A stretch of 25,933 nt of DNA from Candidatus Woesearchaeota archaeon (GTDB lineage Archaea > Nanobdellota > Nanobdellia > Pacearchaeales > GW2011-AR1): the NCBI GenBank assembly GCA_964357325.1, contig CAYHLB010000001.1:1-25933 (forward strand), written 5' to 3'. The position numbers and the translations under genes were made by a program. Under the pieces are notes generated by a model, which had not been told where the DNA came from, searched no databases, and saw only the letters and a program-made list of their open reading frames with translations. Shown piece after piece: positions 9,174 to 10,301 of this stretch (position 1 is the stretch's first letter; each line of letters begins with the position of its first letter).

Positions 9174-10301
9174 ATGAAAAAAAGATGGATGTTTGTTTTA
9201 TTCTTTATAGCATTACTCATTTTAGGAGTTTCTGCATTTAGTTTTAATTCAAATATTTTTGATAATCTCCTTAATAAAAAAGGTGAATTAAGAGTTACGA
9301 GTGAGCATCCCTTTCTTATTAATGGAACATGGGTTACAGCAAAAGATTTGAAGGTTGGAGATGAGCTTTTTACTGTTAATGGGAAGAAAGCAAGGATAAC
9401 AAAGATTATTGATGTTAAAACAAAAGAACCCTTTCCAGTGTATAATCTTGAGGTAAGGGGATATGAAAATTTTGTTCTTGATGATGAAATTGTTGTGCAT
9501 AATAGCAATGGGCCTAATAGTTGGACTTCTGTTGAATCTACTTCTAAAGATAGGAAATACTATGAACGTGTTATTAATAATTTTGATAATAATATTAGGT
9601 CTTCAGATGTGGATTTATTAAAAGAAGGTAGGAGATATTCTGGACAAATTTATGAACCTATTATTGAAGAAAATAGGCGATCTATCGATTCTCTTGCAAG
9701 AGAATTGGATGGAGTTGATTTAGTTATTGGTACTGACAGGGGAGGTTCAACTCTTGCAGATCTTCTTACAGAAAGATACAAAGAAATAAATGGATTAGAA
9801 CTATCTGCTGGTTCTGTGCCAAAAAAAATAGAAACAGGAAATCCTTCTCAAAGATATAAAACTTTAACAAGGTCTGAACAAAACAGTATGCTTTCTGATT
9901 CTATAAATGAATTCTTAACTACAAATCCTAATACTAAAAGTATTGCCATTACAGAATCGGTTGTTAGTGGAGGTTCTGCGAATGAGTTGTTAAATCAAGT
10001 AATAATTGATATGGCTAAAGAAAACCCAAAGGTTAGATTTAAGCTTTTGTTACATCAACAAACCTTAGGTCAAACAGAAACATCGCTTAGAGGAGCTGTT
10101 AAAAGAAACAATCTTCCATCAAATATAGATGTTACAATACAAGAATCTCGTTATTTAATACCAGAAGATGTTAATCTAGAATCAACTCGCCCTATAACAA
10201 TTTTTAGGAAGAGTGAAACCGGTGATATTGAAACGAGACTTATAGAGGGCAGTACTCCTTTAAAAACAAAATTAATTAATTTATTGACCAAAAATCCTTA
10301 A
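9174..10301 (+). CDS. Exported protein (375 aa from ATG 9174): signal peptide + Hint/intein C-fragment + PRTase-like C-extein
   Basis: MKKRWMFVLFFIALLILGVSA signal; RVTSEHPF, AKDLKVGD, VYNLEV, VVHN|S; then DLVIGTDRGG and IAITESVVSGGSA. Confidence 0.9.
   Translation: MKKRWMFVLFFIALLILGVSAFSFNSNIFDNLLNKKGELRVTSEHPFLINGTWVTAKDLKVGDELFTVNGKKARITKIIDVKTKEPFPVYNLEVRGYENFVLDDEIVVHNSNGPNSWTSVESTSKDRKYYERVINNFDNNIRSSDVDLLKEGRRYSGQIYEPIIEENRRSIDSLARELDGVDLVIGTDRGGSTLADLLTERYKEINGLELSAGSVPKKIETGNPSQRYKTLTRSEQNSMLSDSINEFLTTNPNTKSIAITESVVSGGSANELLNQVIIDMAKENPKVRFKLLLHQQTLGQTETSLRGAVKRNNLPSNIDVTIQESRYLIPEDVNLESTRPITIFRKSETGDIETRLIEGSTPLKTKLINLLTKNP
9282..9503 (+). other. Split Hint/intein C-fragment (IntC, 74 aa, ending His-Asn; +1 residue Ser)
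   Basis: Block B TSEHPF, block F VYNLEV, block G VVHN-S; no block A Cys motif upstream. Confidence 0.88.

Follow-up and report, generated by a model that had tools for sequence, protein, structure and literature searches.

The diversity of polymorphic toxins is commonly attributed to DNA recombination, which puts different toxin tips onto a single long gene. In the PT-HINT polymorphic toxin systems (PF07591; Zhang et al., 2012, PMC3482391), a conserved delivery and processing part is combined with a hypervariable C-terminal toxin and a small cognate immunity gene. Natural split inteins include those of DnaE and Neq Pol and the ‘fractured genes’ (PMC2677866; reviewed in PMC11766414), and the split sites known in nature divide the intein at ~100/35 residues or, atypically, at ~25/104, as in AceL-TerL with its 25-aa IntN (PMC11766414). 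Toxic effectors with a phosphoribosyltransferase (PRTase) fold include ShosT, which disrupts purine metabolism (PMC11961720), and the effector carried by Retron-Eco11 (PMC12746101). The eCIS toxins possess eCIS_core (DUF4157), a domain of contractile-injection toxins (PMC8213781, PMC11297309).

The window, i.e. the whole stretch of 25,933 nt of DNA that was analysed, belongs to a groundwater DPANN archaeon of the Nanoarchaeia type that was present in runs from three studies; its genome (G000) is 71 % complete. The ORF at positions 9174–10301 (+ strand) was confirmed to be open and encodes 375 aa. Its ATG at 9174 is the start shared with the homologues, which begin MKK, and a TATA-like AT box lies ~25–30 nt upstream. 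Residues 1–21 (9174–9236, +) comprise an n-region (MKKR), a 15-residue hydrophobic core (Kyte–Doolittle 2.9) and VSA, a feature found in 36 of 36 cassettes examined and kept in all full-length ones. They look like a predicted Sec-type export signal, although the hydrophobic segment could instead be an uncleaved membrane anchor. In the translation of the ORF a 16-aa linker (9237–9284, +) leads from the predicted cleavage site to a Hint half, IntC (residues 38–110; 9285–9503, +), which contains Hint blocks B (TSEH), F and G (VVHN), ends HN/S and supplies the catalytic residues T42, H45, H109, N110 and, as the +1 residue, S111. Pfam PT-HINT matched the cassette with 44.2 bits (gathering threshold 27.7; E 2.9e-11), residues 38–110 aligning with profile positions 60–136 of 137 only, indicating an incomplete Hint; Intein_splicing and, from NCBIfam, TIGR01443 (intein_Cterm) matched the same half. 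Block A and an N-extein were absent from the cassette gene by both profile match and sequence inspection. A preliminary description of this ORF had proposed a signal peptide running straight into a Hint half with no N-extein, and this arrangement was recovered, with 16 residues between VSA and block B. The remaining 265 aa, the C-extein (9504–10298, +), were assigned by alignment, an AF2 model and Foldseek as a putative toxin domain of divergent PRTase fold. This architecture is far beyond chance and recurs in dozens of metagenomic proteins. Elsewhere in the window, positions 17220–20084 (−) encode a 954-aa SMC_N/AAA_23 protein.

A homologue search covering 5.8 billion proteins retrieved at least 36 relatives of the cassette, 210–626 aa in length, which have the first ~110 aa in common (50–72 % identity) and unrelated C-termini. 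The C-exteins of signal–IntC homologues were thus polymorphic, as the preliminary description had anticipated, the 36 proteins being alike over the first ~110 aa only. One relative is named by NCBI as a polymorphic toxin-type HINT protein of Candidatus Nanoarchaeia. The +1 residue is Ser in 34 of the 36 cassettes and Lys in P0012, P0079 and both cassettes of genome G411 (see below); contiguous Hint relatives in the class have mostly Lys+1. The architecture of P0005 is the same as that of the window cassette; in P0004 the toxin domain is likewise shared (55 % identity) and a Hint is absent. A second cassette, P0006 (348 aa), is encoded in the same genome on contig 58 (L002:1402–2448, +); its IntC is ~75 % identical to that of the window, its C-terminal domain is unrelated and unannotated, and the next gene, which is convergent, encodes a 205-aa protein without a Pfam match. 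By its sequence, the ORF at 9174–10301 is a polymorphic-toxin cassette.

The family of the C-extein comprised 38 representatives at E<1e-3, in which the domain was always C-terminal, in proteins of 167–1865 aa; several of these proteins possess eCIS_core, which lies at the N-terminus of the bacterial members. The AF2 model of the C-extein (37-sequence alignment; pLDDT 90, pTM 0.88) had XPRT, PyrR and HGPRT, all type I PRTases, as its top Foldseek matches in the PDB (E 3e-5, probability 1.0), and its neighbours in the AFDB clusters and ESM Atlas were PRTase, PRTase-CE and StiP/PRTase_2 proteins (TM ~0.5). VIA-align gave Z 9.8 for PyrR compared with ~8.4 for unrelated Rossmann-like chains, a small margin, and ESM Atlas feature searches were uninformative. 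The motifs DRGGS (PPi-loop-like) and IAITESVVSGGS (PRPP-loop-like) are placed on strand–loop–helix elements; QT and GEDV are also conserved family-wide, and the family consensus reads SLERGGS, IAIxETxVGGGS, QT and LGEDVxYQ. The canonical PRPP motif of type I PRTases consists of four hydrophobic residues and two acidic residues, followed by a ..TGxT loop. IAITESVVSGGS departs from this pattern and keeps one of the two acids. No PF00156 (Pribosyltran) match was found on the C-extein in the Pfam search and no PADLOC match at E≤1, which places it outside the ShosT and retron effector models by sequence; sequence searches with the C-extein and with the 433-aa and 97-aa proteins described below against Pfam, NCBIfam, PADLOC and PDB sequences returned nothing. 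Since only one canonical acid is present and there is no Pribosyltran or PADLOC match, the C-extein is called here, on the strength of its model, a PRTase-fold domain and not a member of the PRTase family. The PRTase-like fold, both motifs and the altered acidic pair of the preliminary description all found support in this analysis, and the Foldseek comparison that it had recommended put PRTases on top. Judged by fold and neighbours, the domain may, as the preliminary description had suggested, deplete or modify nucleotides; its putative target would be nucleotide or PRPP metabolism.

The cassette gene converges on two genes, which encode a predicted cytoplasmic 97-aa protein (10298–10591, −) and a PRTase-like accessory protein of 433 aa with the motifs LRGAKP and IYIDEIVSGG (10593–11894, −). 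In the three archaeal loci with the C-extein domain (the window, L004 and L005) the toxin gene converges on genes for a ~100-aa and a ~430–470-aa protein, the identities being 39–45 % for the smaller partner and 44–46 % for the larger, which is kept in all three. Five bacterial loci were examined: in two, the convergent pair consists of a nucleoside hydrolase (Pfam IU_nuc_hydro) and a 103–111-aa gene, and in the other three a 104–105-aa gene lies directly downstream of the toxin gene on the same strand. The small partners are homologous in all eight loci (hhalign probability 98 %, E 2.7e-14), with Y5, H7, S10, G12, G39, T64 and P69 invariant. This constancy of a small homologous partner next to the toxin domain makes the 97-aa protein the best candidate for the cognate immunity protein, in keeping with the preliminary description, which had singled out this neighbour for co-expression with the C-extein. 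The immunity-candidate genes are convergent with the toxin gene here, unlike the usual toxin-then-immunity order. Sequence inspection revealed no hydrophobic N-terminus on the 97-aa or the 433-aa protein, and both are therefore expected to be cytoplasmic, which fits a toxin that would act in the cytoplasm.

The 433-aa protein in archaea and the nucleoside hydrolase in some bacteria appear from their distribution to be optional accessories and suggest that nucleosides or nucleotides are involved in the chemistry. AF2 modelled the 433-aa protein from three sequences with a pLDDT of 52, and this poor model offers no more than hints of a RAM-like domain at the N-terminus and a PRTase-like one at the C-terminus. 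Comparison of the toxin domain with the 433-aa protein by BLASTP and hhalign was not significant, so that common ancestry of their PRTase-like domains would be hypothetical. Over its C-terminal ~260 aa the 433-aa protein belongs to a wide Pfam-less family of ~285–310-aa bacterial and archaeal proteins (P0091–P0133; e.g. in Gemmata), and in the one locus checked (L055) the ~290-aa bacterial homologues had no link to the toxin domain. Other cassettes, at L006:10422–13723, converge on different putative immunity or accessory genes, namely a GDSL lipase with a 205-aa gene and a metallophosphoesterase. It may be that enzymes often serve as partners in the split-Hint cassette system.

A gene on the opposite strand (362–4021, −) encodes a 1219-aa protein, referred to as the carrier, with a predicted signal peptide, a large extracellular body and a C-terminal Hint N-half. 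This IntN comprises the last 61 residues (365–547, −), begins at Cys1 after GLGTG with block A (CFLANTKITM) and ends YYIIDYEIK at the stop codon. The best Pfam matches to the last 80 carrier residues were two models of the Hint family, both of them aligned from their start, at a weak, sub-threshold E of ~0.02. The only database relatives of the carrier were P0076 (1329 aa) and P0077 (1425 aa, from Nanoarchaeia and otherwise unrelated), which end at the same point as the carrier with the motif CFLANT...EY.IIEYEI. Overlapping the carrier start is the gene for a 244-aa protein with a class III (pilin-like) signal, KRGQ/ITIF (4018–4752, −). A homologue with 37 % identity is also found upstream of the P0076 carrier, and the pilin-like protein may be an assembly or anchoring partner of the carrier. 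In a Pfam search of the whole genome, Hint matches were confined to the two cassettes (window, and P0006 on contig 58) and an ordinary contiguous mini-intein of 134 aa (CLSPDS...VHNS) in the aRF1 gene on contig 103 (L003:940–2439, −); no contiguous carrier–Hint–toxin gene was found. Carrier and cassette are ~5 kb apart in the window, on opposite strands and not adjacent, an arrangement that rules out programmed frameshifting across the carrier/cassette overlap as a general mechanism.

The preliminary description had regarded the cassette as a stand-alone cartridge, a view that was not supported, given that a complementary IntN ends the carrier and that in three other genomes the cassette follows and overlaps the carrier gene. 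In these loci (L006, L009 and L033) the signal peptide–IntC ORF overlaps the carrier stop, and on the P0076 and P0077 contigs the next gene, which overlaps the carrier stop in another frame, is a signal-peptide plus half-Hint cassette followed by convergent small genes. Complementary Hint halves, with the carrier ending where the cassette begins, were seen in four lineages. Among 400 genomes of the phylum sampled for co-occurrence, split IntN and split IntC were found together in G411 alone, as they are in G000, the other strong matches being contiguous Hints; an order-level census outside G000 also gave contiguous Hints only. The G411 carrier has its IntN ending two residues before the stop and an overlapping cassette, with a second cassette 1.8 kb downstream, and one carrier with two cassettes is thus the content of both G000 and G411. 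L006 likewise has a second cassette, 2.5 kb further on.

When joined in silico the halves (IntN 61 aa, IntC ~75 aa) gave a 137–138-aa sequence that aligned end to end with contiguous mini-inteins of 135–144 aa. The joined sequence was used for this alignment, as MAFFT of the separate halves places the 61-aa IntN on IntC, reflecting the internal repeat of the fold. In ordinary mini-inteins the IEYEI and ELxVT strands follow each other without interruption, and it is the turn connecting them that is broken here; at this place the full intein P0037 has the sequence IEYEIELENGELFRCTENHPF. The canonical split-intein residues are complete over the two genes, with Cys1 on the carrier and T42, H45, H109, N110 and S111 on the cassette. 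The pattern shared by the two halves in the MAFFT alignment is G.W/Y..I.DL.VGD..T..D......, and the Hint fold is naturally broken just where its two internal pseudo-repeats meet. Two genomes of the same order (G176 and G197) encode large Cys-rich surface proteins (L014, L016) with a C-terminal membrane anchor and a contiguous Hint in mid-protein; these Hints possess Cys1 and HNK without a +1 nucleophile, a BIL-like arrangement.

The window also retains traces of rearrangement. Positions 151–389 are repeated at 11737–11975 (85 % identity) and positions 4704–4784 at 12008–12088 (88 % identity). Directly upstream of the 433-aa gene is a remnant of a second carrier–IntN gene, consisting of the last eight codons (YIIDYEIE) and stop (11948–11974, −). 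The 433/97 operon is now headed by a duplicate (12008–12088, −; 88 % identical) of the pilin-like gene's promoter and initial codons, and downstream of the intact carrier is a 50-codon stub of a 433-like gene (150–302, −). These three traces indicate an ancestral order of pilin-like gene, carrier–IntN, 433 and 97, convergent with the IntC–toxin gene. At L004 the P0076 carrier is matched collinearly by two stretches, its residues 185–943 by an 816-aa upstream ORF and its residues 978–1138 by the first 160 aa of P0004. The two L004 ORFs are separated by TAG, and P0004 runs from its carrier-like part directly into the C-extein-type toxin domain with no Hint. The collinearity suggests that a covalent carrier–toxin form of the same pair exists or existed. 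Contigs from four groundwater runs yielded no credible carrier–cassette joint (the joints were short-sided, and the contigs were fragmented and of low coverage), a result that speaks neither for nor against an inversion switch.

From these sequences it is probable that a naturally split, extracellular Hint reconstitutes and loads interchangeable toxins on one carrier, the step being either trans-splicing or docking followed by cleavage. Carrier and cassette would both be exported unfolded through Sec, and outside the cell the Hint halves would dock to form an active Hint fold that loads the toxin. Protein trans-splicing would then ligate the toxin to the carrier C-terminus (Cys1, TxxH, HN and Ser+1 are all present), or else the Hint would cut after Asn110 and free the toxin, as is supposed for contiguous PT-HINTs. 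If reconstitution occurs, ligation and docking followed by release are roughly equally likely for the window cassette. Its Ser+1 would permit trans-splicing, of which the product would be the Hint-less carrier–toxin form of L004; the Lys+1 cassettes (P0012, P0079 and both of G411) can only cleave, so that ligation is not the general chemistry. The stronger proposal, extracellular trans-splicing in DPANN archaea in which one Sec-exported carrier with a 61-aa IntN is covalently tipped with any of several exported IntC–toxin cassettes, is possible but doubtful. A single carrier would serve several cassettes; this genome, G411 and L006 each have two for one carrier. Once in the cytoplasm of the target, the PRTase-like domain would attack nucleotide or PRPP metabolism, the producer being shielded by its cytoplasmic 97-aa protein, with the 433-aa PRTase-like protein as an accessory antidote. 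Several points count against the split-Hint reading: carrier and cassette are non-adjacent here, Pfam support for IntN alone is sub-threshold, the cassette N-terminal segment is possibly an uncleaved anchor, the PRTase match is little above Rossmann-like chains, the C-extein lacks one canonical acid and any Pfam or PADLOC match, contiguous relatives are mostly Lys+1, the immunity-candidate genes are convergent and the genome is incomplete.

That the cassette acts by itself, its half-Hint alone or as a homodimer (by virtue of the internal pseudo-symmetry) cutting the toxin from the signal-anchor while the Hint half of the carrier is unrelated, would agree with its own promoter-like TATA box, start codon and signal peptide, with its distance from the carrier in this genome and with IntN and IntC being alike enough for MAFFT to align one onto the other. 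We consider this unlikely: carriers in four lineages end exactly where the cassette begins (in three of them the ORFs overlap), the N and C halves of split Hints are found together in single genomes, and in the alignment the 75-aa half is without strands needed for a closed Hint fold. The start codon and canonical signal peptide right before block B in 36 of 36 cassettes speak, in turn, against a silent orphan cassette whose half-Hint is a mere homology arm for recombining toxin tips into a contiguous carrier–Hint–toxin gene. No such contiguous gene was found in this genome, the stop after IntN is conserved in carriers of four lineages, and the groundwater-run contigs, at low depth, held no credible carrier–cassette joint. 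This reading is very unlikely, even though orphan toxin cassettes are typical of polymorphic toxin loci (PMC3482391), contiguous Hint toxins are present in related genomes and the window locus has undergone duplication and deletion.

A role outside toxicity is also conceivable, with the C-extein an exported PRTase-like salvage enzyme of a nucleotide-auxotrophic DPANN cell at the host interface and the 433-aa and 97-aa proteins its metabolic partners. The PRTase-like folds of the C-extein and of the 433-aa partner would suit such an enzyme, as would the nucleoside hydrolases that neighbour the bacterial homologues, but both eCIS_core proteins and polymorphic cassettes carry the domain as their variable C-terminal tip, one of the canonical catalytic acids is missing from it, and it has a constant small cognate partner that in three bacterial loci occupies the usual immunity position, directly downstream on the same strand. 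The salvage-enzyme explanation is highly improbable.

On the preferred reading of a split, reconstituting Hint, tip and carrier would be separate exported proteins joined or docked outside the cell, and a genome of ~1 Mb could equip a single 3.7-kb carrier with several cassettes of ~1 kb. Confirmation would make this the first natural split Hint/intein that is dedicated to delivering toxins and acts extracellularly; it would also provide a new split site from nature (61/75 aa), which protein engineers might use, and a way into the question of how episymbiotic DPANN archaea attack or manipulate their hosts. Trans-splicing, if it takes place, would amount to post-translational diversification of polymorphic toxins by a natural mid-domain split intein working outside the cytoplasm. 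The analysis also defines a PRTase-fold toxin domain without an assigned family, which bacterial eCIS toxins possess as well, together with a ~100-aa candidate immunity family. Full-text literature searches for split inteins with polymorphic toxins, and for natural split inteins with secretion or toxins, returned no description of such a system.

Compared with the PT-HINT systems, the locus shares the conserved delivery and processing part, the hypervariable C-terminal toxin, a small gene for a candidate cognate immunity protein and the reuse of the same toxin domain on other delivery modules (eCIS_core). It differs in its divided Hint, of which the carrier gene encodes 61 aa and the cassette gene ~75 aa, in the predicted Sec signal on every cassette, in the convergent orientation of the immunity-candidate genes and in its host, a DPANN archaeon. 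The likeness to ShosT and the Retron-Eco11 effector lies in a PRTase-like fold, here a modelled one, that would serve as a growth-arresting effector; there is no detectable sequence similarity, the partner proteins are others, and the domain would be a secreted inter-cellular toxin tip and not an intracellular toxin–antitoxin (TA) or retron effector. With eCIS toxins the locus has in common the C-terminal toxin-domain family and the homologous ~100-aa partner that follows, whereas delivery would proceed by a Sec-exported carrier and split Hint and not by a contractile injection particle. As in natural split inteins, two separately encoded fragments would form one Hint fold with Cys1, TxxH, HN and a +1 nucleophile, which some sister cassettes lack. 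In contrast to those inteins, the domain is divided near its middle (61/~75 aa), where the two pseudo-repeats join, both halves have predicted export signals, so that assembly would be extracellular, and the exteins are a carrier and interchangeable toxins instead of the halves of one housekeeping enzyme.
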